A stretch of DNA of 32,000 bases from Mycobacterium tuberculosis H37Rv (GCF_000195955.2 NC_000962.3:2370001-2402000), one strand, 5' to 3'. Counted from the first letter of the stretch, positions 16,293 to 28,406 are shown. A program made the numbers and translations. Notes: generated by a model from the sequence alone, not told the origin.

Positions 16293-17171
16293 GTGACCCC
16301 ATCGGAGGGCAACGCACCGCTGCCCGAACTGCACAACACCGTCGTCGTGGCTGCGTTCGAGGGCTGGAACGACGCCGGCGACGCGGCCGGCGATGCCGTG
16401 GCACACCTGGCGGCCAGCTGGCAAGCACTGCCGATTGTCGAGATCGATGACGAGGCCTACTACGACTACCAGGTCAATCGGCCGGTCATCCGCCAAGTCG
16501 ATGGGGTTACCCGGGAACTGCAGTGGCCGGCCATGCGGATCTCGCACTGCCGCCCACCCGGCAGCGACCGCGACGTGGTGTTGATGTGCGGGGTGGAGCC
16601 GAATATGCGCTGGCGCACGTTTTGCGACGAGTTGCTGGCGGTCATCGACAAACTCAACGTGGACACCGTGGTGATCCTGGGGGCGCTGCTGGCCGACACC
16701 CCACACACCCGGCCGGTGCCGGTCTCGGGCGCGGCCTACTCCGCGGCGTCGGCGCGGCAGTTCGGCCTTCAAGAAACACGCTACGAGGGCCCCACCGGCA
16801 TCGCCGGCGTCTTCCAATCTGCCTGTGTGGGGGCCGGCATCCCGGCGGTGACGTTTTGGGCGGCGGTGCCGCACTATGTGTCGCACCCACCGAACCCGAA
16901 GGCGACGATTGCGTTGCTGCGCCGGGTCGAGGACGTGCTCGACGTCGAGGTGCCGTTGGCGGACCTGCCCGCACAGGCCGAAGCGTGGGAGCGCGAGATC
17001 ACCGAGACGATCGCCGAAGATCACGAGCTGGCCGAGTACGTGCAGACGCTGGAACAGCACGGCGACGCCGCGGTGGACATGAACGAGGCTCTCGGCAACA
17101 TCGACGGCGACGCGCTGGCCGCCGAGTTCGAGCGCTATCTGCGCCGGCGCCGCCCGGGGTTCGGGCGCTAG
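16293..17171 (+). CDS. PAC2 (proteasome assembly chaperone 2)-family protein (Rv2125-like, 292 aa)
   Basis: The 292-aa ORF has a GTG start. LHNTVVVAAFEGWNDAGDAAGDAV... is the typical actinobacterial PAC2-family N-terminus, followed by an acidic C-terminal tail. Confidence 0.82.
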   Translation: MTPSEGNAPLPELHNTVVVAAFEGWNDAGDAAGDAVAHLAASWQALPIVEIDDEAYYDYQVNRPVIRQVDGVTRELQWPAMRISHCRPPGSDRDVVLMCGVEPNMRWRTFCDELLAVIDKLNVDTVVILGALLADTPHTRPVPVSGAAYSAASARQFGLQETRYEGPTGIAGVFQSACVGAGIPAVTFWAAVPHYVSHPPNPKATIALLRRVEDVLDVEVPLADLPAQAEAWEREITETIAEDHELAEYVQTLEQHGDAAVDMNEALGNIDGDALAAEFERYLRRRRPGFGR

Positions 17172-17201
17172 AGGGAGGTTGCGCTGCGGCGGACGACGGT
17201 G

Positions 17202-17972
17202 TCAGCCGGGCGGCCCAGGATCGCCGGAATCACCCTGAGTGCCCGGAGCGCCGGCTTTGCCGGGATTCGTGCCTGTCGACGTACCACCGCCGGCACCAGC
17301 CTCGCCGCGCGCACCGCCGCCGCCGCCGGCCCCGCCCTCGCCGCCGCTGCCCATGGCGCCGTGGGCGCCCGAGTGGCCACTGAGCCAGCCGCCCGCCCCG
17401 CCCGCGCCACCGGCACCGCGGGCACCTCCGGCGCCGCCGGTGCCACCATCGCCACCATCGCCGCCGTCACCGCCGCGGCCACCGAAGGCGTTACCACCCC
17501 CAAAGGCGCTGGCAACGCCGCCGCCACCGGTCCCGCCGGCCCCTCCCCCACCGCCCACACCGCCGGCACCGCCAATGCCGCCGGCACCGCCAGCCCCGCC
17601 GTCACCGATCAGCAGCCCGCCGGCCCCGCCAGCCCCGCCCGCGCCGCCGGCACCACCCATGCCGCCAGAGGCTCCGGTATTCCCGTTGCCGCCGAAGCCA
17701 CCGCGGCCACCTTGGGCAAAGCCCCCAGTGAATTCGTCGGCGAACCCACCTTTCCCGCCGTCGCCACCGAGGCCGCCGGGAGCGCCGGCGCCTCCGATGC
17801 CGCCATTGCCACCGGCGCCGCCGGCCCCGCCGTTACCGATCAATCCCGCACTGTTGCCGGCCCCACGGTCCTGACCGGCGGCACCCGCCCCACCGTGCCC
17901 GCCATTGCCATACAGCAATCCACCCGGCCCACCGGGCTGGCCCGGCCCGCCGTTAGCGCCGTCGCCGATCAA
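17202..17972 (-). CDS. PE_PGRS37: PE_PGRS family protein, PGRS part only (PE_PGRS37-like; 256 aa from the TTG at 17972)
   Basis: The sequence is Gly-Gly-Ala/Asn repeat from [33 protein letters not shown]... to the stop at 17202. The enclosing ORF 17202..18269 runs further upstream, but that part is out of frame with most of the PE domain (see the pseudogene entry). Confidence 0.75.
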
Positions 17973-18319
17973 CGGCCGGCCAACAATGCCTGGGTGGGCG
18001 CATTGACGGCATTGAGCACTTCGTGTGCCAACGTGGCGTTGGCGGTCTCGGCGGCCGCGTACCACCCGCCACCCGAGGTTAGGGCCGCGACAAACTGCGC
18101 GAGATACGCGGCCGCCTGCGCGCTGATCTGTTGGTATTCCTGCGCATTCGCGCCGAACAGCGCCGCGATAGCCATCGACACCTCGTCGGCGGCGGTCGGC
18201 CGCCAACGCCGTCGTCGGGCCTGCCACGAGCGCATTGGCCGCGCTGATCGCCGAACCGATCCCCGCCACATCTGCGGCGGCCGCGGTCAGAAAGAAGGTT
18301 GCGCGATTACGAACGACAT
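17973..18319 (-). pseudogene. Frame-disrupted PE domain upstream of the PGRS region
   Basis: ATG at 18319 gives [10 protein letters not shown], then TGA at 18289-18287. [32 protein letters not shown] is read in the frame of ORF 17202..18269. [70 protein letters not shown] is read in the frame of ORF 17969..18271, which is the same frame as the ATG, and stops at 17971-17969. Confidence 0.7.
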
Positions 18320-20307: not shown

Positions 20308-21189
20308 CTAGGAATTCTCGAGTGATTCGGTGTAGGCGCTGGCAAAGCGGCCGAGCGCGGCGACCTCGGCATCCATCTGGGGCATCAGCTTGGCAACGGT
20401 GTTGCGGATGGGACGTTGGCCTACCCGGGTGGACAACAACGGCTTGAGCCAACGGAACAGGGCCACCCAGCCCGGGCAGTACACGCGATCTTTTCGGCCC
20501 TCAATGCCGTTGACGAATGCGGCCGCACACTTGTTGACCGACGTGGTCTTGTTCAACGGCCAAGGGAGGCGCGCCAGCAATTCGGCGAACGCAGGCAGGT
20601 CGGCCTTGGTATCGCGAACCAACGCGGTGTCGATCCACGACATGTGCGCCGAGCCGACGCTGACGCCCAGGTGTGCGACCTCGAGTCGCAACGCGTTGGC
20701 GAAGTGCTCGTTACCCGCCTTCGACATGTTGTAGGGCGCCATCCCGGGCGGCGCCGCGAACGCGGCAAGCGACGAGACGATCAATACGTAACCGCGGCGG
20801 TCGATCAGCGCGGGCAACGTCGCCCGCACCGTGTGGAAGTTACCCAGCAAATTGACGTCCAACACCCGCCGGAACGCCTGCGGGTCGACCTTCAGCACGG
20901 AGCCGTAGCTGGCGATGCCGGCGTTGGCCACGACGACGTCGATGCCGCCGAATCGTTCGACGGCCGTCTCGGCTGCGGCCTGCATGGCGGGCAGGTCGCG
21001 CACGTCGGCTACCACGGTGAGTAGGCGGTCGTCGCCGCCGAGTTCGGCGCCCATCACCGCCAGCTCTGATTTGCTCAGGTCGGTCAGCACCAGTTTGGCG
21101 CCCTTGTTGTGCAGCCGACGGGCGACCTCAGCCCCGATTCCCCGGGCAGCACCGGTAATGAAGACGACCTTGCCTTGCAGCGATGTCAT
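20308..21189 (-). CDS. Short-chain dehydrogenase/reductase (Rv2129c-like, 293 aa)
   Basis: ORF 20308..21543 is started at the ATG at 21189 (MTSLQGKVVFITGAARGIGAEV...). It has the TGxxxGxG cofactor motif and the YNMSK catalytic YxxxK motif. The longer N-terminal extension would overlap mshC. Confidence 0.88.
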   Translation of the reverse strand: MTSLQGKVVFITGAARGIGAEVARRLHNKGAKLVLTDLSKSELAVMGAELGGDDRLLTVVADVRDLPAMQAAAETAVERFGGIDVVVANAGIASYGSVLKVDPQAFRRVLDVNLLGNFHTVRATLPALIDRRGYVLIVSSLAAFAAPPGMAPYNMSKAGNEHFANALRLEVAHLGVSVGSAHMSWIDTALVRDTKADLPAFAELLARLPWPLNKTTSVNKCAAAFVNGIEGRKDRVYCPGWVALFRWLKPLLSTRVGQRPIRNTVAKLMPQMDAEVAALGRFASAYTESLENS

Positions 21190-21214
21190 GGCCGAAAACG
21201 TACCGCCGCGCCGG

Positions 21215-22459
21215 CTACAGGTCCACCCCGAGCAGGGCATCGATCGCCGTCGCCACCAACTTCGGCGCCCCGGCATCGTGGCCGCCGTACTCCACCGCAT
21301 CGGTGACCCAACCATCCAGTGCGGCAATCGCTTTGGGCGTATCGAGATCGTCGGCCAGGTAGCGGCGCACCCGAGCGACAACGTCAACTGCGGCCGGACC
21401 GGCGGGAAGTGCGGTTGCGGTGCGCCAACGGTGCAGCCGGGCGGTCGCCTCGTCAAGCACCTGCTGGCTCCAGAACCGATCGGCTCGGTAGTGTCCGGCG
21501 AGCAAACCCAGCCGAACCGCCGATGGCTCAACGTCCTGCGCACGCAGCGCCGACACCAGCACGAGGTTGCCGCGGCTCTTTGACATCTTGTGCCCGTCCC
21601 AGCCGATCATCCCGGCATGCACGTAGTGCCGCGCGAATCGCCGTTCGCCGCTGACACATTCGGCGTGCGCAGCGGTGAACTCGTGGTGCGGAAAGATCAG
21701 ATCGCTACCACCGCCCTGGATGTCGAGGCCGCTTCCGATACGACTGAGCGCGATGGCTGCGCACTCGACATGCCAGCCTGGCCGGCCAGGCCCGAACGGG
21801 GACGGCCAGCTGGGCTCACCGGGCCGCGCGGCCCGCCACAACAACGCGTCGAGTTCGTCGCTCTTGCCGGGGCGCCGCGGATCGCCGCCACGTTCCTCGC
21901 ACAGCCGCAGCATGGTGTCACGGTCATACCCTGACTCGTAGCCGAACTGCAGGGTGGCGTCAGCGCGGAAGTAGATGTCCTGGTACTCTCCCATTTCCCG
22001 GTCTATGACATAGGCCGCCCCGCACGCCAGCATTTTTTCGATGAGCTCGACCATTTCAGCAATCGCTTCGGTGGCCCCCACGTAGTCTTGCGGTGGTAGC
22101 ACCCGCAGCGCCGCCATGTCCTCACAGAACAGGGCGACCTCGGCTTGGGCAAGGTCACGCCAGTCGACACCGTCGCGATCCGCGCGCTCAAATAGTGGAT
22201 CGTCGATGTCGGTGATGTTCTGGACATAGTGCAATTCATGACCGAGATCCAGCCACAGCCGATGGATCAGGTCGAACGTCACATAGGTGGCAGCATGGCC
22301 CAGATGCGTGGCGTCGTAGGGCGTGATCCCGCAGACGTACATGGTGGCCTTAGATCCGGGCGCCACCGGACGGACCTGCCGGTCGGCGCTGTCGTACAGC
22401 CGTAGCTGCGGGCCTCGTCCCGGCAACACCGGAACCGGTGGGCAATACCACGACTGCAT
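21215..22459 (-). CDS. mshC: L-cysteine:1D-myo-inositol 2-amino-2-deoxy-alpha-D-glucopyranoside ligase MshC (414 aa)
   Basis: This 414-aa class-I aaRS-like ORF has a HIGH-type motif (THLGHAATY) and a KMSKS motif (HKMSKSRGN). It begins [24 protein letters not shown]..., as in MshC/CysS2. Confidence 0.92.
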
Positions 22460-22516
22460 GTCCTCGACTCTAAACGGCCCGGTGACTCCAGCCTTTCTGA
22501 GCAGCCCGCGCGCCGA

Positions 22517-23320
22517 TCAGCGCCACGCGTCGGCGATGGCACCGAGCAGGATCGGCGCCACCTCGGCTCGACACATCAGCAGATCCGGCAGGTAGGGGTC
22601 CAGTTGGTTGTATCGCAGCGGCGAGCCATCGAGTCGTGACGCGTGCATGCCGGCGGCCAACATCACCCCAGCCGGCGCCGCGGAATCCCACTCCCATTGG
22701 CCTCCGGCGTGCAGGTAGGCGTCGACGTAGCCGTCAATGACGGCCATCGCTTTGGCGCCCGCCGAACCGATCGACACCGGTTGGATCGCCAGCGTCTGGC
22801 GGATGCGGTGCAGGACTGCCGGTGGCCGGGTGGCGCTGACGGCAATCCGCAAGGTGCCAGGAACGCCGGCCGGCGCGGCGCCGGAAGTCACCGTATCGGT
22901 GCGGTACACCACGTTGCCACGGGCCGGCAACGCCACCGCGGCGTCGGTGATCTCGGGCTGGCCATTGGAGGAACGCCGCCACAGCGCAATGTGTACCGCC
23001 CAGTCGTCGCGACCCGGTGTGGAGAACTCGCGGGTGCCATCCAACGGGTCAATAATCCACACCCGATCGGATTTCAGCCGGGCCAGATCGTCGTGGGCCT
23101 CCTCACTGAGCACTGCGTCACCCGGCCGTTCGGCCTGCAGCCGTCGCAACAGCAGCGAGTTAGCCTGGCGGTCACCGGCTTCCCCGAGCGTCCATGGCTG
23201 ATCGAAACCGATCTCCGCACGCACCTGGAGCAACAGCTTTCCCGCGTCCGCCGCCAGGTCGGCGGCCAGCTCGGCGTCAGTCAGGTCGTCCGTCAGATCA
23301 GGTGCGGCAGGGCTCACCAC
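22517..23320 (-). CDS. cysQ: 3'-phosphoadenosine 5'-phosphate phosphatase CysQ (IMPase family, 267 aa)
   Basis: ORF 22517..23356 is started at the GTG at 23320 ([13 protein letters not shown]...). It carries the IMPase motifs EEAHDD and [12 protein letters not shown]. Confidence 0.88.
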
Positions 23321-23366
23321 TTCAGTATCGCCGAGCTGAACGCAGGCATTTGACAATGGGGCTTCA

Positions 23367-23399
23367 CATCATGATGCTCTATAATTCGCATCTTGATGC
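23367..23399 (+). promoter_or_regulatory. Candidate promoter/operator: TATAAT -10 flanked by two CATC-N2-GATG inverted repeats
   Basis: The elements are CATCATGATG (23367-23376), TATAAT (23380-23385) and GCATCTTGATGC (23388-23399). The repeat centres are 22 bp apart, just upstream of the RHH gene. Confidence 0.55.
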
Positions 23400-23410
23400 A
23401 CAATAGTGGG

Positions 23411-23641
23411 ATGCGAACCACGGTCAGTCTCGCCGACGACGTTGCCGCTGCCGTGCAGCGCTTGCGGAAGGAACGCTCGATCGGGCTGAGCGAAGCCGTC
23501 AACGAGTTGATCCGTGCCGGGCTCACGAAACGACAGGTCGCAAATCGGTTCCAGCAGCAGACGTACGACATGGGCGAGGGAATCGACTACTCCAACATCG
23601 GCGACGCGATCGAAACACTGGACGGCCCGGCAAGCGGCTAA
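23411..23641 (+). CDS. Ribbon-helix-helix VapB-like antitoxin (Rv2132-like, 76 aa)
   Basis: MRTTVSLADDVAAAVQRLRKERSIGLSEAVNELIRAGL... shows the beta-strand/helix/helix pattern of the MRTT-type RHH antitoxins. Alternative starts are at 23393 (TTG) and 23396 (ATG). Confidence 0.75.
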   Translation: MRTTVSLADDVAAAVQRLRKERSIGLSEAVNELIRAGLTKRQVANRFQQQTYDMGEGIDYSNIGDAIETLDGPASG

Positions 23642-23850
23642 TGCTCATTGACGCAAACCTCCTGCTCTATGCCGTCGACGAGCGTGCCGCGCGGCACCGC
23701 GCCGCGGTTGGCTGGCTTTCGGAACAACTCAACGGCTCCCGTCGGGTCGGCTTGCCGTGGCAGAGCCTGGCCGCCTTCCTGCGGATCGGGACTCATCCAC
23801 GTGCGTTCCCGCGACCACTCACACCTGCCGCGGCATTCGACATCGTCGAC
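23641..23850 (+). pseudogene. Truncated PIN-domain (VapC-like) toxin remnant, N-terminal about 70 codons
   Basis: The ATG overlaps the antitoxin TAA (TAATG). MLIDANLLLYAVDERAARHRAAVGWLSEQLNGSRRVGLPWQSLAAFLRIGTHPRAFPRPLTPAAAFDIVD parallels the N-terminal half of the VapC subfamily of the ML.VDVNVLVYA...LGLP..VL.GF.R..T type. Beyond about 23850 the frame is antisense to the next gene, and no C-terminal D.HLAA-type acidic motif is seen in any frame. Confidence 0.6.
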
Positions 23851-24666
23851 CTAAAACGCCGGCCAGGGAATGGGACGATGCCCATTCGGCCCGGGCATCA
23901 CCGGTTGGTCCAGCAGCGATTGCGCGCGTCGGCGCAGCGCGCCGATTTCGGCTGCGGCGATTCGCCCGGCCAACGCCTCGGCAAGCGGGCCGCCAAGAGC
24001 ATCGGCGAGCCCGGCAACCGCCTGCAGAATTTGGTCGTCAATCGGCTTGCCGGCCCAACCCCACAGCACGGTGCGCAGCTTGTTCTCGACGTGCAGACAC
24101 AATCCATGGTCGACCCCGTAGACCTGGCCGTCGATGCCGCACAGGATGTGACCGCCCTTGCGGTCGGCGTTGTTGATAAGCACGTCGAACACCGCCATCC
24201 GGCGCAACCGGATGTCGTCCGCGTGCATCAAAACGACCTCGTCACCGGCGTAGTCGTAGGCCCGCAGCACCGGCAGATAGCCCGGCCGCGGCCGGTGGGC
24301 GGGAAACAGGTCGACCAGGTCGGGCCCGGGCAGAGGGTCGGAGTCGACCGCGTCGCCGGGTTGCTGCACCCAGAGCTGTAGCATGCCTATGCCCGCCGGA
24401 CCGTCTCGGATGATGGTGTGCGGCACCAGGTTCCAGCCCAACTGTGTCGACACCAGATAGGCGCTGAGTTCGCGGCCGGCCAGCGTTCCGTCGGGGAAAT
24501 CCCACAACGGCCGCTCGCCCGAGACCGGCTTGTAGACGCAATGCAGGCTGCGCAGACCCAGCGTGGACTCACACAAAAAGGTGGCGTTGCTCGCCGAGCG
24601 GATCCGCCCGAGGACTGTCAGCTCGCCGTCGGCCAACACCGCATGCTCGTCATCCCGCAGGGTCAT
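23851..24666 (-). CDS. PI3/PI4-kinase-like protein, SCO1664 family (Rv2133c-like)
   Basis: ORF 23851..24744 has a likely ATG start at 24666 (MTLRDDEHAVL...), which overlaps the upstream gene end by 17 nt. An alternative GTG is at 24639. The kinase-like catalytic loop is NNADRKGGHIL, followed by GVDHGLCL (DFG-equivalent). Confidence 0.8.
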   Translation of the reverse strand: MTLRDDEHAVLADGELTVLGRIRSASNATFLCESTLGLRSLHCVYKPVSGERPLWDFPDGTLAGRELSAYLVSTQLGWNLVPHTIIRDGPAGIGMLQLWVQQPGDAVDSDPLPGPDLVDLFPAHRPRPGYLPVLRAYDYAGDEVVLMHADDIRLRRMAVFDVLINNADRKGGHILCGIDGQVYGVDHGLCLHVENKLRTVLWGWAGKPIDDQILQAVAGLADALGGPLAEALAGRIAAAEIGALRRRAQSLLDQPVMPGPNGHRPIPWPAF

Positions 24667-25237
24667 CGCCAGACCCGAGCAGCACATCGCGCCGGTAACC
24701 GTTGGTGCGCGCACAGATGTGTCCCTCGGGATCCAGCGGTTCATCGCAGAGCGGGCACGGCGGGCGTCCCGCAGAGATGACGCGGTAGGACCGAGTAGCG
24801 AACTGTCGGGCGGACTCCGGCGTCAGAAATACCCGCACCGCGTCGGGCCCTTCCTCGGTGTCGTCGAGCACCACGGAAGCGTCGAACTCCGCGTCGGTGA
24901 CGGCCAGCAGTTCGACCACCACGCTCTGCGCCTCCGAATCCCAGCCCAGCCCCATCGTCCCGACCCGAAACTCGGCATCCACCGGCATGATCAGGGGGCT
25001 GAGGTCGTCGATCTCAGTGGGTTCCGGGGGCACCGGGGTGCCGAACCGGCGGTTAACCTCGAACAGCAGCGCTCCGATGCGCTCGGCGAGCACCGCAACC
25101 TGCTGCTTCTCCAGGACCACCGACACCACCCGGGAGTCGTGCACCGCCTGTAGGTAGAACGTGCGGTTTCCGGGCTGGCCAACAGTCCCGGCGACGAAAC
25201 GGTCGGGTGTGCGGAATACGTGAATTGCGCGGGCCAT
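24650..25237 (-). CDS. DUF3090-family protein with C-terminal zinc-ribbon-like motif (Rv2134c-like, 195 aa)
   Basis: The 195-aa ORF begins MARAIHVFRTPDRFVAGTVGQPGNRTFYLQA... Its C-terminus is PPCPLCDEPLDPEGHICARTNGY (CxxC ... HxC). Confidence 0.82.
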   Translation of the reverse strand: MARAIHVFRTPDRFVAGTVGQPGNRTFYLQAVHDSRVVSVVLEKQQVAVLAERIGALLFEVNRRFGTPVPPEPTEIDDLSPLIMPVDAEFRVGTMGLGWDSEAQSVVVELLAVTDAEFDASVVLDDTEEGPDAVRVFLTPESARQFATRSYRVISAGRPPCPLCDEPLDPEGHICARTNGYRRDVLLGSGDDPAG

Positions 25238-25300
25238 GGCACCTCCAAAATACCGCGCAGACGCCGTTGCCGCGTTCTTCGTCGACGGTCACCCCACACG

Positions 25301-26011
25301 CTAGTCGGTGGAACCGCCGATCACCGCGTCGCCGGGTGGCACCGCCGCGTTCGGCTCCGGTGACGCACCCTGGGCGGAAGCCGCGGCCTGCAAAGCCGGG
25401 GCCAGCCGGGCGCCGGTGTGGTTGACGTGCAGCACGAACGGGCGCAGCTGGGTGTAGCGGACGACACTCACCGAACCCGGGTCGGCGGTGATTCGCTGAA
25501 AGCTGTCCAGATGCATACCGAACGCGTCTGCGATCACCGCCTTGATGACATCGCCATGGGTGCAGGCCAGCCACAGCACGTCGTGGCCGTGCTGATCGGC
25601 CAGCCGCCGGTCGTGTTCGCGGACGGCTGCCACAGCGCGAGTCTGCACCTGCGCCAAACCCTCACCGCCGGGAAACACCGCCGCGCTGGGGTGGGCCTGG
25701 ACTACCCGCCACAACGGCTCGTCGACCAGGTCACCGATTTTTCTGCCAGTCCATTCGCCGTAGTCGACTTCGGAGAACCGGTCATCGATGAGCGGCTCCA
25801 GGCACAGCGCCTCGGCCAGCGGTTCGACGGTGCGTTGACACCGCAGCATTGGAGAAGACGCGACCGCCCGGATCGGCAGGTCACCAATTCGATCGATCAA
25901 CCCGGTGGCCTGCTCGCGCCCCTTCTCGTCGAGGTCGACGCCGGACCGGCCGGCCAGCACGCCCGCGGTGTTCGAGGTGGAACGGGCATGGCGTAGCAAG
26001 ATGACGGTCAT
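25301..26011 (-). CDS. Histidine-phosphatase (phosphoglycerate-mutase-like) family protein (Rv2135c-like, 236 aa)
   Basis: [14 protein letters not shown] is the RHG-type catalytic motif, with a second His in [11 protein letters not shown]. The ATG overlaps the uppP stop (ATGA, 26008-26011). Confidence 0.85.
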
Positions 26012-26838
26012 GTCGCGGCTACCGTCCCGGTAGCCAGCAGCACGAGCATGCCCGTCCCGACGAGCACCCGGTAGCCGACGAACCAGTACATGTTGTGTCG
26101 CACCAGAAACCGCAGCAGCCAGGCCACCGCGGTCAGACCGAGGACGAACGCGATCAGGGTGGCCACCAGCAACTGCGGGCCAGTAGCGCTCATGCCCTCG
26201 GTTACCGGGTGGAATGCGTCGGGCAACGAGAACAACCCGGAGGCGAACACCGCTGGAATGGCCAGCAGGAATCCGAATCGGGCGGCCAGTTCACGGTCGA
26301 GTCCGAGAAACAGTCCAGCGCTGATGGTCGACCCGGACCTGGATACCCCGGGGACCAGCGCCAGGGTTTGGGCAATACCAACCACCACGGCATCCCGCCA
26401 GGTCAACCGCTCAATGTGACGACTCTGGCGCCCCACGTATTCGGCGAGTGCGATCACCCCGGAAAACACCACCAGCGCGGTCACCACGACCCACAGGTTG
26501 CGGACGCCCGACCGGATGTCGTCTTTGAAGAACAGGCCCAGAATGCAGATCGGGATTGTGCCGATGATGACATACCAGCCCAGCCGATAATCGGTGTTTC
26601 GATGTGCCTTCACGACCAGGCCGTGCAACCAAGCGCTCAGGATGCGCACAATATCGCGCGCAAAGTAGATCACTACGGCGGCCTCGGTGCCCAACTGGCT
26701 CACGGCGGTGAACGAGGCACCGGCGTCGCCGCTGAAGAAGATCCGCGACACGATCGCCAGATGTCCCGAGGACGACACCGGCAGGAACTCGGTCAAACCC
26801 TGGGCCGCGGCCAACACGATGACTTGCCACCAAGACAT
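26008..26838 (-). CDS. uppP: Undecaprenyl-diphosphate phosphatase UppP/BacA (276 aa)
   Basis: ORF 26008..26856 is started at the ATG at 26838 ([27 protein letters not shown]...). The BacA signature is [10 protein letters not shown], and the protein is polytopic. Confidence 0.92.
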
Positions 26839-26901
26839 CGCCGGAGCCGCGGTCACGACGACGACGGTACCCGGTTACCGGCGGCCGGTAGACGGATGCG
26901 C

Positions 26902-27315
26902 CTAACGCGACACCGGCGCCGCGGATGCCACCGAGTCGCGCACGGCCGCAGCAAGGCTGCGTTCGTCGGTCAGGTCAATGTCGACCAGGCCACGGACCGC
27001 CATCGCGACCACATCCTCAGCCTGCGGCACCGGACCGGCCACGCGCGGTCGATAGATTTCGACGACGAGCGAGCGATGCTCGATGTGGAAGGAGAAACTG
27101 CGTCCATCGCCGACTTGCCCATACCCGCTGGCGAAAATTCCCGTCGATATATCTTCAACAGCAAACTCTTCGCGCTTGTCTGCGAGATGCCGGTCAGCGG
27201 TGACGGTCATGCCCAGAGAATACCTCTGGAGTACCATTTCCCGTGGGCGACATGACGAGATTGAAAGCAACTTGCCAGATTCGGATTCGTGAGAGGTTGA
27301 CTTCATGTTTCGCAT
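26902..27315 (-). CDS. Conserved hypothetical protein (Rv2137c-like; 137 aa as the maximal ORF, true start uncertain)
   Basis: The maximal ORF has internal ATGs at 27237 and 27210. The first about 26 codons have a low GC3 (about 54% by hand count). The start sits only 14 bp from the divergent lppL start. Confidence 0.6.
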   Translation of the reverse strand: MRNMKSTSHESESGKLLSISSCRPREMVLQRYSLGMTVTADRHLADKREEFAVEDISTGIFASGYGQVGDGRSFSFHIEHRSLVVEIYRPRVAGPVPQAEDVVAMAVRGLVDIDLTDERSLAAAVRDSVASAAPVSR

Positions 27316-27329
27316 CCGAAGGCTGACCG

Positions 27330-28406
27330 TTGCTAACAGGGAATAAACCAGCAGTTCAACGCCGCTTCATCGGCCTGTTGATGTTGTCAGTCCTGGTCGC
27401 AGGCTGTTCTTCGAACCCGCTGGCTAACTTCGCACCCGGGTATCCGCCCACCATCGAACCCGCCCAACCGGCGGTGTCACCGCCTACTTCGCAAGACCCG
27501 GCCGGTGCAGTGCGACCACTGAGCGGCCACCCCCGGGCGGCACTATTCGACAACGGCACCCGCCAATTGGTGGCTCTGCGCCCGGGCGCCGATTCGGCGG
27601 CACCCGCCAGCATCATGGTCTTCGATGACGTGCACGTTGCACCGCGCGTCATTTTTCTGCCGGGCCCGGCAGCCGCGTTGACCAGCGACGACCACGGCAC
27701 GGCCTTCCTTGCCGCCCGCGGCGGCTACTTCGTGGCCGACCTGTCCTCCGGTCACACCGCACGAGTGAATGTCGCTGACGCAGCGCACACCGATTTCACC
27801 GCGATCGCCCGCCGCTCCGACGGCAAGCTGGTGCTGGGCAGCGCAGATGGCGCCGTCTACACGCTTGCCAAGAACCCCGCAGTTGACCCGGCGTCCGGCG
27901 CCGCCACCGTAGCCAGCCGGACCAAGATCTTCGCGCGCGTGGATGCCCTTGTAACACAAGGGAATACAACCGTTGTTCTGGATCGTGGCCAGACCTCGGT
28001 GACCACGATCGGCGCCGACGGTCATGCCCAGCAGGCACTGCGCGCCGGCCAAGGTGCGACGACCATGGCCGCCGATCCGCTGGGCCGGGTGCTGATCGCC
28101 GACACCCGTGGTGGCCAACTACTGGTGTACGGCGTCGACCCGCTGATCTTGCGCCAGGCCTACCCGGTGCGGCAGGCTCCGTACGGGCTGGCCGGATCCC
28201 GCGAATTGGCGTGGGTGTCCCAAACCGCGTCCAACACCGTCATTGGTTACGATCTGACCACCGGAATACCCGTAGAGAAGGTGCGTTACCCAACCGTGCA
28301 ACAACCCAACTCGTTGGCCTTCGACGAAACGTCGGACACCTTGTACGTGGTGTCGGGATCCGGTGCCGGGGTCCAGGTCATCGAACACGCGGCGGGCACC
28401 CGATGA
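27330..28406 (+). CDS. lppL: Lipoprotein LppL (358 aa)
   Basis: TTG start. The signal peptide is [31 protein letters not shown], with lipobox LVAGC. Confidence 0.85.

Follow-up and report, generated by a model that had tools for sequence, protein, structure and literature searches.

What, if anything, do three consecutive minus-strand genes of Mycobacterium tuberculosis H37Rv, encoding a histidine phosphatase, a DUF3090 protein and a kinase-like protein, do together? They lie within a stretch of 32,000 nucleotides (NC_000962.3:2370001-2402000), here called the window, and all positions are counted from its first letter. A preliminary description of the sequence had presented them as one unit coupled to uppP. 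ORF and sequence reading confirmed the minus-strand trio at 23851-26011 together with its motifs and overlaps. The features around it, from uppP to mshC, are as follows.

26008..26856, minus strand: uppP (Rv2136c-like), undecaprenyl/decaprenyl-diphosphate phosphatase (NF001392 461 bits, BacA 265 bits)
25301..26011, minus strand: histidine phosphatase of the MSMEG_4193 family (Rv2135c), 236 aa (TIGR03848 330 bits)
25238..25300, minus strand: spacer between the phosphatase and DUF3090 genes, 63 nt, with GGAGG 5 nt before the DUF3090 ATG
24650..25237, minus strand: DUF3090/TIGR03847 protein (Rv2134c), 195 aa (TIGR03847 262 bits, DUF3090 234 bits)
23851..24666, minus strand: SCO1664-family kinase-like protein (Rv2133c), 271 aa (TIGR03843 369 bits)
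23393..23641, plus strand: ribbon-helix-helix (RHH, antitoxin-like) ORF, convergent with the kinase gene (RHH_1 21.5 bits, cut-off 20.5)
22517..23356, minus strand: cysQ, IMPase-fold 3'-phosphoadenosine-5'-phosphatase family (Inositol_P 95 bits)
21215..22459, minus strand: mshC, cysteine:GlcN-Ins ligase, a CysRS paralogue with KMSKS (TIGR03447 685 bits)

Packing is as tight as had been described. The phosphatase ATG (26011-26009) overlaps the uppP TGA (26010-26008) to form ATGA at 26011-26008, a 63-nt gap separates the phosphatase and DUF3090 genes, and the kinase gene overlaps the end of the DUF3090 gene by 17 nt. The kinase frame is open over 23851-24744 on the minus strand; an internal ATG at 24666 gives the 271-aa form with its 17-nt overlap with the DUF3090 stop, and this form is the RefSeq annotation ('SCO1664 family protein'). 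A plus-strand ORF at 23641-24381 has an N-terminus that looks PIN-like by eye and gave no Pfam match. Searches of 21000-27600 for sigma-70-like promoters, terminators and Rfam families returned nothing meaningful, and the 63-nt spacer itself (25238..25300) holds neither an Rfam match nor a promoter-like site.

HMM searches bore out the family assignments, all of them far above curated cut-offs, and exact matches to the three sequences are proteins of the M. tuberculosis complex. Rv2135c scores 330.3 bits with TIGR03848 (cut-off 203.85), spanning model positions 1-203 of 204; Rv2134c scores 261.7 bits with TIGR03847 (cut-off 117.25) and 233.8 bits with PF11290/DUF3090; and Rv2133c scores 369.2 bits with TIGR03843 (cut-off 172.4) over model positions 1-253 of 253. 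The trio and its linkage to mshC are already known from NCBIfam families and the literature. The three-gene actinobacterial system of NCBIfam/TIGRFAM is this same system, here its M. tuberculosis member, and the family definitions carry no function. As had been supposed, our literature search found no paper assigning a pathway to Rv2135c, Rv2134c and Rv2133c.

Gene order was compared across loci L001-L160. One profile search of genome contigs gave 80 best matches, all from Mycobacterium and Nocardia; the divergent set, L081-L160, is a metagenomic sample. The trio is adjacent and co-directional in nearly all loci of the full set with enough flank. Divergent loci carry the phosphatase, DUF3090, the kinase and mshC in this order on one strand in an operon-like arrangement, with gaps mostly of -20 to +60 nt; in 42 of 47, mshC starts within 200 nt behind the kinase gene and in its orientation. 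In low-GC lineages a divergent aldo-keto reductase gene and a convergent PAC2 gene bound the unit. Precomputed Pfam labels give the same order, with mshC directly after the kinase, in Kineosporiaceae and in two MAGs, and two rearranged loci (L091 and L107) keep translational coupling between the two genes. Identity to the divergent set is 42-47% for the three trio proteins and 49% for MshC. A published list of actinomycete signature proteins includes SCO1664 and describes its gene as 'generally very close to mshC' (PMC4255298).

Between kinase and mshC, cysQ occurs in 43 Mycobacterium loci among the best 80 matches listed; neither Nocardia nor L081-L160 has it there. The claim that cysQ is a neighbour of the trio therefore holds in Mycobacterium and fails in Nocardia and all 80 divergent loci. 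Nothing comparable to the RHH ORF was found at this place in Nocardia or the divergent loci. The two form a lineage-specific insertion that splits the trio from mshC in M. tuberculosis, and cysQ is Mycobacterium-specific.

The link to uppP also has a limited range. uppP adjoins the phosphatase gene in the window, in 61 of 79 loci from Mycobacteriales (among the best 80 matches listed), and also in Kineosporiaceae and Pseudonocardia. Among divergent loci it is adjacent in 6 of 44, farther off in 17 and absent from the available flank in 21, and some loci have unrelated genes (CorA, M23 peptidase) inserted between uppP and the phosphatase. The label 'uppP-coupled' appears to hold for Mycobacteriales only; mshC is the most consistently linked downstream partner in other actinomycetes. 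These counts bear on a role with uppP in membrane-lipid phosphate metabolism, in which the phosphatase would act on phosphatidylinositol phosphate or polyprenyl (di)phosphate and the kinase on phosphatidylinositol or polyprenol. We think such a role quite unlikely, given the rarity of adjacency and the insertions in the divergent set. The ATGA overlap and the Mycobacteriales, Kineosporiaceae and Pseudonocardia loci favour it, as do the likeness of the kinase to a lipid kinase family, the membrane-fraction association reported and the uppP-related role proposed for Rv2135c by Coker et al., and a mycobacterial phosphatidylinositol (PI) pathway in which the PIP phosphatase after PgsA1 is without a gene (PMC6506517). 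Linkage to pgsA1 is seen in none of the loci, however, the 271-aa kinase has no predicted membrane segment in its model, and the family shares with mycothiol the standing of an actinomycete signature, where PI is an actinobacterial one (PMC4255298).

Within the unit, DUF3090 and the kinase form an irreducible core, since four Pseudonocardiaceae genera (Saccharopolyspora, Saccharomonospora, Lentzea and Actinoalloteichus) keep the pair without an adjacent phosphatase. The view of the trio as a unit thus stands as co-directional adjacency nearly everywhere, with the phosphatase missing from it in these four genera. The two core genes were never found apart in the loci examined; in Lentzea and Saccharomonospora the pair lies away from mshC. 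A 264-aa ORF upstream of DUF3090 in Actinoalloteichus was ruled out as the phosphatase, and in Saccharopolyspora, where an MBL-fold hydrolase gene overlaps that of the kinase, the hydrolase has no match beyond a sub-cut-off one to a generic metal-dependent hydrolase model. Apparent domain fusions (long 'DUF3090-kinase' and 'phosphatase-DUF3090' proteins, P0212, P0192 and P0243) were discarded as interaction evidence; they are frameshifted mistranslations, Arg/Ala/Pro-rich and out of frame.

Adjacency alone could be inherited synteny in a stable core region, with three proteins that work independently. A larger block is kept across orders (M20 peptidase, AKR, LLM oxidoreductase, uppP ... mshC, PAC2, metH), and the phosphatase and mshC are each separable from the core pair. 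Against this, the phosphatase-DUF3090 and DUF3090-kinase junctions keep the same strand and order in about 150 loci, with frames overlapping or near-touching, while flanking genes flip and gain insertions, and the core pair stays together throughout. That the proteins have no common function is very unlikely.

Rv2135c (protein record O06240) carries the motifs ILLRHARS and ACTHGD, the first with RHA in place of RHG, and scores 150 bits with His_Phos_1 in a Pfam profile search. Its catalytic set (R7, H8, R57, E81 and H152) is invariant among 51 phosphatase homologues, and either RHG or RHA occurs elsewhere in the family. The closest characterised relatives are small-molecule enzymes, namely CobC (model E 1e-29), PspA phosphoserine phosphatase (structure 4ij5, 9e-19) and the glucosyl-3-phosphoglycerate phosphatase GpgP (Rv2419c, 8e-7), with scores far below family cut-offs. 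They share the fold and the catalytic Arg-His-Arg-Glu-His. Rv2135c differs from them in having RHA instead of RHG, a basic linker with a GGG tail, and weak, unspecific measured activity. Because the TIGR03848 model ends at residue 203 of 236, it leaves the C-terminal tail uncovered. The motif [VILPT]GG[GSQE] is C-terminal in 50 of the 51 homologues compared to 8% of control ORFs; this conserved basic linker and GGG tail, outside the model, is a new observation. The family name ('putative phosphomutase') implies a mutase; published work found weak acid phosphatase activity and no phosphoglycerate mutase activity for Rv2135c, using generic substrates only, with a Km of about 10 mM and a C-terminal His-tag placed on the conserved tail (PMC3866925).

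Rv2133c contains NNADRKGGH and GVDHG, and its predicted catalytic set is complete (K46, E66, D168-R169-K170...H173, D186-H187-G188), with K46, E66, D168 and D186 invariant in kinase family alignments. Pfam PI3_PI4_kinase (PF00454) matches residues 156-198, the catalytic and activation loops only, with 23.6 bits, below the gathering score of 27.1; some orthologues have a precomputed PF00454 match. A PDB sequence search with the kinase gave no matches, and the family profile found only FAM20A and actin-fragmin kinase in the PDB, at E about 0.2. The AF2 model (pLDDT 90, pTM 0.90) has PI4KII beta and alpha as its top Foldseek matches (E 3e-6 to 8e-5, prob 1.00), followed by Rio1, Vps34, CtkA and HipA. 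The PI3/4-kinase likeness first read from motifs is thereby also seen in the predicted structure. We propose that Rv2133c is closest to a minimal type II PI 4-kinase-like fold, catalytically complete by its residues, an assignment that is new here.

The likeness to PI4K2A/PI4K2B is the best structural match (E 3e-6) at 16-17% identity and a TM-score of about 0.43, with DRKGGH/DHG as the equivalents of DRxxxN/D(N/F)G. Rv2133c differs in being a bacterial protein of 271 aa that is modelled without a membrane segment, in having an invariant His173 for the catalytic-loop Asn, and in falling below the Pfam gathering score while having invariant loops of its own, GERPLWDFP, KLRTVLWGW and a C-terminal P-x-I-P-W-P-x-F (pLDDT 54-62 in the model). 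HipA, HipT and CtkA belong to the same kinase superfamily (structural matches at E 3.5-3.9e-4; HipA TMq 0.37). We rejected membership in a HipA-type toxin kinase system: the trio lacks the HipA N-terminal subdomains and an HTH antitoxin partner, and such systems are mobile, whereas the trio is vertically inherited, near-universal in actinomycetes and in stable synteny, with a dedicated phosphatase.

Rv2134c has the zinc-ribbon motif CPLC(161-164)...HIC(173-175). Its predicted Zn ligands (C161, C164, H173 and C175) show no substitution in 54 diverse DUF3090 sequences or in another 141. The AF2 model (pLDDT 82.7) places a Cys3His zinc ribbon after two beta-sheet-plus-helix repeats, and the two copies of the internal repeat line up in register (hhalign E 0.0045). 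A PDB sequence search gave no matches; Foldseek against the PDB gave a single match with E <0.05, to Pur-alpha repeat I-II (5fgp_A, E 8.9e-3), and this match is weak (prob 0.93, 10% identity, TM 0.37/0.48, rmsd 12.8 A). We describe DUF3090 as an internally duplicated beta-sheet-plus-helix unit, which may be Pur-alpha-like, ahead of the invariant zinc ribbon; this description is also new. The predicted tandem repeats recall Pur-alpha and Whirly proteins, from which DUF3090 differs in its added zinc ribbon and, for the Pur-alpha match, in its low identity and large rmsd. Conserved columns are rich in arginines and aromatics. A role for DUF3090 as phospho-acceptor was rejected, as no Ser, Thr or Tyr is invariant (position 39 is Ser or Thr in 48 of 54 sequences). 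The idea that DUF3090 is the most conserved protein of the set is true within Mycobacteriales only and fails across the divergent set.

Such a fold would allow a nucleic-acid function, in which DUF3090 is a Pur-alpha/Whirly-like single-strand binder through which the kinase and phosphatase act, for example in post-transcriptional control of mshC. The two-repeat architecture, the sole PDB fold match, the conserved arginines and aromatics, and the basic tail of the phosphatase are consistent with this. The weakness of the fold match, the absence of a conserved RNA element from the region in the Rfam search, and the lack of precedent for these kinase and phosphatase classes on nucleic acids make it most improbable.

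The preliminary description took a kinase plus a phosphatase to imply a phosphorylated small-molecule intermediate. This is plausible; the alternative is a protein substrate, for which MshC is considered here. The kinase, held or targeted by DUF3090, would phosphorylate MshC and turn off mycothiol synthesis, which consumes cysteine and ATP, and the phosphatase would erase the mark. In class I aminoacyl-tRNA synthetases, the KMSKS loop is a target of the kinases HipA and HipT. MshC, encoded next to the kinase module, is a class I (CysRS) paralogue, and it contains KMSKS; a serine of this loop would be the most plausible site, as for HipA on GltX, and DUF3090 might detect thiol or redox state through its Cys3His zinc site. 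Several observations point this way: gene order and overlaps with mshC are kept over great evolutionary distance, coupling survives even in the rearranged loci, and the kinase has an obligate non-catalytic partner. The conserved, poorly packed termini (P-x-I-P-W-P-x-F of the kinase, basic linker and GGG of the phosphatase) resemble docking peptides, many invariant aromatics in GERPLWDFP and KLRTVLWGW are of surface type, and the protein kinases HipA and CtkA are among the structural matches, CtkA with the same TM-score as PI4KII.

The gene order also mirrors partner-switching systems. RsbU-RsbV-RsbW-SigB and SpoIIE-SpoIIAA-SpoIIAB run phosphatase, small partner, kinase and regulated target, as the trio and mshC do, with a kinase and a phosphatase of opposing action. 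The folds are all unrelated, however, DUF3090 has no conserved phospho-acceptor, and an enzyme would take the place of the sigma factor as target. We regard a phospho-switch on MshC as possible but doubtful: besides the missing invariant Ser, Thr or Tyr in DUF3090, the phosphatase resembles small-molecule phosphatases more than it does SixA-type protein phosphatases, bacterial atypical kinases of this fold class, the HipA family aside, mostly act on small molecules, and the pair lies away from mshC in two genera. A more specific version, with DUF3090-kinase as a fixed chromosomal HipA-type relative gating the MshC KMSKS loop, the zinc ribbon as thiol/redox sensor and the phosphatase as dedicated eraser, is unlikely. 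A SigH/SigR-type promoter would place the unit in the regulon for thiol stress. Such sites (GGAAY-N16-19-GTT) were found upstream of 0/55 phosphatase, 0/44 mshC and 0/68 DUF3090 genes, and none was found near the trio in the window. In C. glutamicum, mshC is SigH-dependent (PMC3489674).

The reading we prefer, with a probability of about 35%, is that the module adds a phosphate handle to an inositol-bearing mycothiol precursor and removes it again; the phosphatase would be a candidate for MshA2 and the kinase a candidate inositol or GlcN-Ins kinase. The core is the pair of DUF3090 and SCO1664 kinase, with the TIGR03848 phosphatase normally ahead of it and mshC directly behind. Substrates, any complex and what DUF3090 does are our inference: the kinase, with DUF3090 as non-catalytic partner, would phosphorylate an inositol hydroxyl, making 1L-Ins-1-P (the MshA substrate) from myo-inositol or acting on GlcN-Ins or GlcNAc-Ins, and the phosphatase would take the phosphate off GlcNAc-Ins-3-P, the orphan 'MshA2' step.

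The conserved linkage between the trio and mshC in 42/47 divergent loci argues for this phosphate cycle, as do the invariance of catalytic residues in both enzymes, the pairing of a PI4KII-like kinase with a small-molecule-type phosphatase, which fits inositol-phosphate chemistry, and the conservation of the trio proteins, which is about that of MshC. The pathway has orphan activities. M. smegmatis is said, in work by Newton and colleagues in 2006 (J Biol Chem), to have a gene-unassigned kinase that converts inositol to 1L-Ins-1-P. Mycothiol-deficient mutants are more sensitive to rifampicin. A BCG transposon mutant in Rv2134c is viable and shares this raised sensitivity, seen with sub-MIC rifampicin (PMC11329110). 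MshA2 is defined by its activity only, and papers up to 2026 refer to it without assigning a gene (PMC13156731, PMC6178380). The same organism offers a precedent in GpgP, which takes a phosphate handle off after glycosyl transfer (PMC3240985); removal after a condensation step, as by GpgP and CobC, is the logic proposed for MshA2.

Other observations weigh against the phosphate cycle. The module is linked to mshC, whereas MshA2 or an inositol kinase would be expected beside mshA, mshB or ino1. DUF3090 has no clear role in it, yet forms an inseparable pair with the kinase, and the phosphatase is not beside this pair in four Pseudonocardiaceae genera. The Rv2135c assays, on generic substrates with a tagged tail, gave a Km of about 10 mM. 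The uppP-trio-mshC block may partly be inherited synteny of a stable chromosomal region, because the PAC2, metH and M20 peptidase neighbours are conserved too. In Corynebacterium, we take it, uppP adjoins mshC without the trio, yet mycothiol is made; if this is right, the trio is not required for mycothiol synthesis.

Mycothiol is the main mycobacterial redox buffer and influences how isoniazid, ethionamide and rifampicin are activated and tolerated. To our knowledge, the MshA2 phosphatase and the inositol kinase have been pathway activities without a gene since 2006, and we know of no regulation of MshC. The kinase, phosphatase and zinc protein, whose genes precede mshC in most of the actinomycete lineages sampled, are thus obvious candidates for the missing enzymes or for a regulator of the pathway, and they are cheap to test. 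Should the module prove unrelated to mycothiol, it would still be a widely conserved actinomycete 'signature' gene set without a function. If the mycothiol link is true, a long-standing gap would be closed, either by the missing enzymes or by a phospho-switch on a CysRS-like ligase, and gating of the MshC KMSKS loop would be the first bacterial post-translational control circuit for a low-molecular-weight-thiol pathway.

Three consecutive genes lie on the minus strand at 23851-26011, with open reading frames and sequence as the preliminary description gave them. The phosphatase and DUF3090 genes of this trio, and the plus-strand frames beside the third, kinase-like gene (Rv2133c), are as follows:

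25301-26011, minus strand: histidine phosphatase gene (Rv2135c; 236 aa, contains ACTHGD)
Between the phosphatase and DUF3090 genes: 63-nt spacer carrying GGAGG
24650-25237, minus strand: DUF3090 gene (Rv2134c; 195 aa, CPLC...HIC at residues 161-175)
23641-24381, plus strand: open reading frame whose first ~70 residues (MLIDANLLLYAVDE...) are PIN/VapC-like by eye
23393-23641, plus strand: ribbon-helix-helix (antitoxin-like) open reading frame (82 aa), ending in an ATGA overlap with the 23641-24381 frame

The phosphatase ATG overlaps the uppP TGA (ATGA, 26011-26008), as had been claimed. The kinase-like reading frame is open from 24744, and the start proposed 17 nt inside the DUF3090 gene holds: the ATG at 24666 yields a 271-aa protein, which is the RefSeq form, and the TIGR03843 model start coincides with it. 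All three sequences match M. tuberculosis complex proteins exactly, the phosphatase being O06240 (Rv2135c). Their neighbours in the window are uppP, the opposite-strand ribbon-helix-helix frame, cysQ and mshC. No promoter or terminator signals or RNA families were found around the trio, and no SigH/SigR-type promoters.

Other features of the window were recorded in passing. The 23641-24381 frame extends across part of the kinase gene on the antisense strand and matches nothing in Pfam; 23393-24381 (plus strand) may be what is left of a truncated toxin-antitoxin pair that was inserted, in convergent orientation, with the trio on one side and cysQ-mshC on the other. Upstream of mshC, the longest form of a short-chain dehydrogenase frame (20308-21543, minus strand) overlaps mshC, and ~120 N-terminal residues precede the adh_short domain (from residue 125); its real start is probably well downstream. 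The 137-aa frame just upstream of uppP (26902-27315, minus strand) has no Pfam or NCBIfam match. The 17001-18000 segment has 76% G+C (window average ~65%) and a GC skew that is strongly negative (-0.18), as would fit a PE_PGRS-type gene with Gly/Ala repeats.

HMM searches place all three proteins above NCBIfam cut-offs, and the families named in the preliminary description were correct. The phosphatase scores 330 bits against TIGR03848 (cut-off 204), the DUF3090 protein 262 bits against TIGR03847 (cut-off 117) and the kinase 369 bits against TIGR03843, the 'SCO1664 family' (cut-off 172). In Pfam, His_Phos_1 scores 150 bits on the phosphatase and DUF3090 234 bits on Rv2134c. PI3_PI4_kinase reaches 23.6 bits on the kinase, below its gathering score of 27.1, and the match is limited to the catalytic and activation loops.

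We compared gene context in two sets of loci: the best 80 from a profile search of genome contigs (Mycobacterium and Nocardia; Mycobacteriales only), and 80 divergent metagenomic loci seeded by low-GC DUF3090 sequences, with ~35-47% identity to the M. tuberculosis proteins. Among the first 80 the genes run (uppP), phosphatase, DUF3090, kinase, (cysQ), mshC, with uppP abutting the phosphatase gene in 61/79 loci and cysQ between kinase and mshC in Mycobacterium only. In the divergent set, phosphatase, DUF3090, kinase and mshC follow on one strand in nearly universal order. The junctions within the trio mostly overlap or span <30 nt, and in 42 of the 47 loci with sufficient flank no more than 200 nt separate the kinase stop from the mshC start (typical gaps 9-60 nt). 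In low-GC lineages the four genes are flanked by an aldo-keto reductase gene (divergent) and a PAC2 gene (convergent), marking the limits of a four-gene, operon-like unit. Identity to the divergent set is 44, 47 and 42% for the trio proteins versus 49% for MshC; by this measure, the trio is conserved about as much as MshC.

The trio had been called uppP-coupled. This stands insofar as the trio belongs to a block of uppP, trio and mshC, with uppP abutting in those 61/79 Mycobacteriales loci, but the place of mshC behind the kinase is much more constant than that of uppP in front of the phosphatase: in divergent loci uppP is directly upstream in 6/44, farther off in 17/44 and outside the flank in 21/44. 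Two metagenome-assembled genomes have CorA or M23 peptidase genes between uppP and phosphatase. The uppP adjacency of Rv2135c was itself remarked earlier (Coker et al. 2013, PMC3866925). The evidence as a whole favours a functional unit linked with mycothiol synthesis over one linked with the recycling of polyprenyl phosphate. We consider lipid-phosphate chemistry improbable.

Two related freshwater metagenome contigs (L091, 1022-2973; L107, 6525-8476) carry mshC and then kinase on the opposite strand, overlapping by 4 nt and convergent to phosphatase-DUF3090; here a rearrangement left kinase and mshC coupled. That inherited synteny alone accounts for the linkage is very unlikely. Kineosporiaceae carry a full block in the Pfam-labelled context (LLM oxidoreductase, uppP, phosphatase, DUF3090, kinase, mshC ... 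PAC2, metH). Pseudonocardia has uppP, phosphatase, DUF3090 and kinase, with mshC absent within 7 kb. Saccharopolyspora, Saccharomonospora, Lentzea and Actinoalloteichus have DUF3090-kinase only, behind divergent S9/S66 peptidase genes; Pseudonocardiaceae loci with this pair lacking an adjacent phosphatase are L161 (7429-9785), L162 (5428-7808), L165, L168 and L169. We read the context as an ancestral block of uppP, phosphatase, DUF3090, kinase and mshC, in which DUF3090 and kinase form the inseparable core, phosphatase and mshC are usual yet separable partners, and uppP is the loosest.

Two further observations concern these loci. In Saccharopolyspora, a gene for an MBL-fold hydrolase overlaps the kinase 3' end by ~30 nt, and the hydrolase may be a replacement partner. 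In record GCA_054779195.1 (P0442/L161), which bears the name of a sphingomonad, Parasphingorhabdus pacifica, a 348-kb contig encodes DUF3090 and an SCO1664-family kinase, and its other genes look actinomycete (DUF2637, a Robl_LC7/HATPase conservon, an mshC-like ligase); mislabelling or contamination of the assembly, not horizontal transfer, is the probable cause.

The predicted kinase structure is confident (pLDDT 90, pTM 0.90). In the PDB it matches type II PI 4-kinases best (E 3e-6 to 8e-5, 16-17% identity, TM ~0.43), followed by Rio1, Vps34, PI4KIII-beta, CtkA and HipA (E ~2-4e-4). The catalytic set is complete and invariant (K46, E66, D168-R169-K170-x-x-H173, D186-H187-G188). Family-specific invariant stretches are GERPLWDFP, KLRTVLWGW and a C-terminal P-x-I-P-W-P-x-F. 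This last motif (23851-23890) is invariant but poorly packed in the model (pLDDT 54-62), the predicted pattern of a docking peptide, not a folded element.

The DUF3090 model (pLDDT 82.7) predicts two repeats of three or four strands and a helix, then a zinc ribbon; the repeats align in register (hhalign E 0.0045), and the predicted zinc ligands C161, C164, H173 and C175 are invariant. No Ser, Thr or Tyr is invariant in the protein. An earlier paper marks it out as a CxxC..HxC protein that putatively binds metal (PMC9425974). BCG tolerates a transposon in Rv2134c, the mutant showing raised sensitivity to sub-MIC rifampicin (PMC11329110). A nucleic-acid role for DUF3090 seems to us highly improbable. 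Apparent DUF3090 fusions with kinase or phosphatase fragments in public protein collections (P0212, P0192, P0243) proved to be frameshifted mistranslations of high-GC DNA, which would mislead Rosetta-stone analysis.

In the phosphatase, R7, H8, R57, E81 and H152 are kept in all 51 homologues examined. A C-terminal tail outside the TIGR03848 model (25301-25400), a Lys/Arg-rich linker followed by [V/L]GGG(A/S)G, is present in 50/51 homologues, divergent loci included, versus 8% of control frames. Among characterised proteins it stands closest to phosphatases that act on small molecules: CobC, PspA phosphoserine phosphatase and glucosyl-3-phosphoglycerate phosphatase. C-terminally tagged Rv2135c, a tetramer, had no phosphoglycerate mutase activity and weak acid phosphatase activity (pNPP Km 10.6 mM; also PEP, glycerol-1-P and F6P) (PMC3866925). 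The His-tag of this sole published enzyme study sat on the conserved tail end.

We found no paper assigning a function to the trio in the literature searched. Chater and Chandra count SCO1664 (ML1300) among the signature proteins of actinomycetes and describe it as 'generally very close to mshC' (PMC4255298). Papers from 2018-2026 continue to mention MshA2 with no gene assigned to it (PMC13156731, PMC6178380). The PIP phosphatase of mycobacterial PI synthesis likewise has no gene assigned (PMC6506517).

We put at about 0.7 the probability of some functional tie between the module and mycothiol or MshC. We tentatively prefer, at well under even odds, a cycle that adds a phosphate handle to an inositol-bearing precursor and removes it again, the mechanism being a proposal only. 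By analogy with GpgP and CobC, the phosphatase would fill the orphan MshA2 step from GlcNAc-Ins-3-P to GlcNAc-Ins. The PI4KII-like kinase, partnered by a non-catalytic DUF3090, would place a phosphate on an inositol hydroxyl; Newton and co-workers reportedly described in 2006 a kinase, without an identified gene, that makes 1L-Ins-1-P in M. smegmatis. However, the linkage is to mshC, not mshA or ino1, the role of DUF3090 is left unexplained, the phosphatase is detachable, and in Corynebacterium uppP is presumably adjacent to mshC without the trio. The main rival, a protein-level switch acting on MshC, better explains three features: a gene order that hardly varies, a partner that is obligate yet non-catalytic, and tails that resemble docking peptides. 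A precedent exists in the HipA family, whose kinases act on class I synthetases by phosphorylating their KMSKS loop, MshC being a CysRS paralogue with KMSKS; we nevertheless judge this switch rather unlikely.

The preliminary observation is thus confirmed and its interpretation partly supported. NCBIfam already lists the trio, its link to mshC has been published, and Rv2135c has been characterised in part. The trio gives an inexpensive way to address directly two open questions of mycothiol biology.
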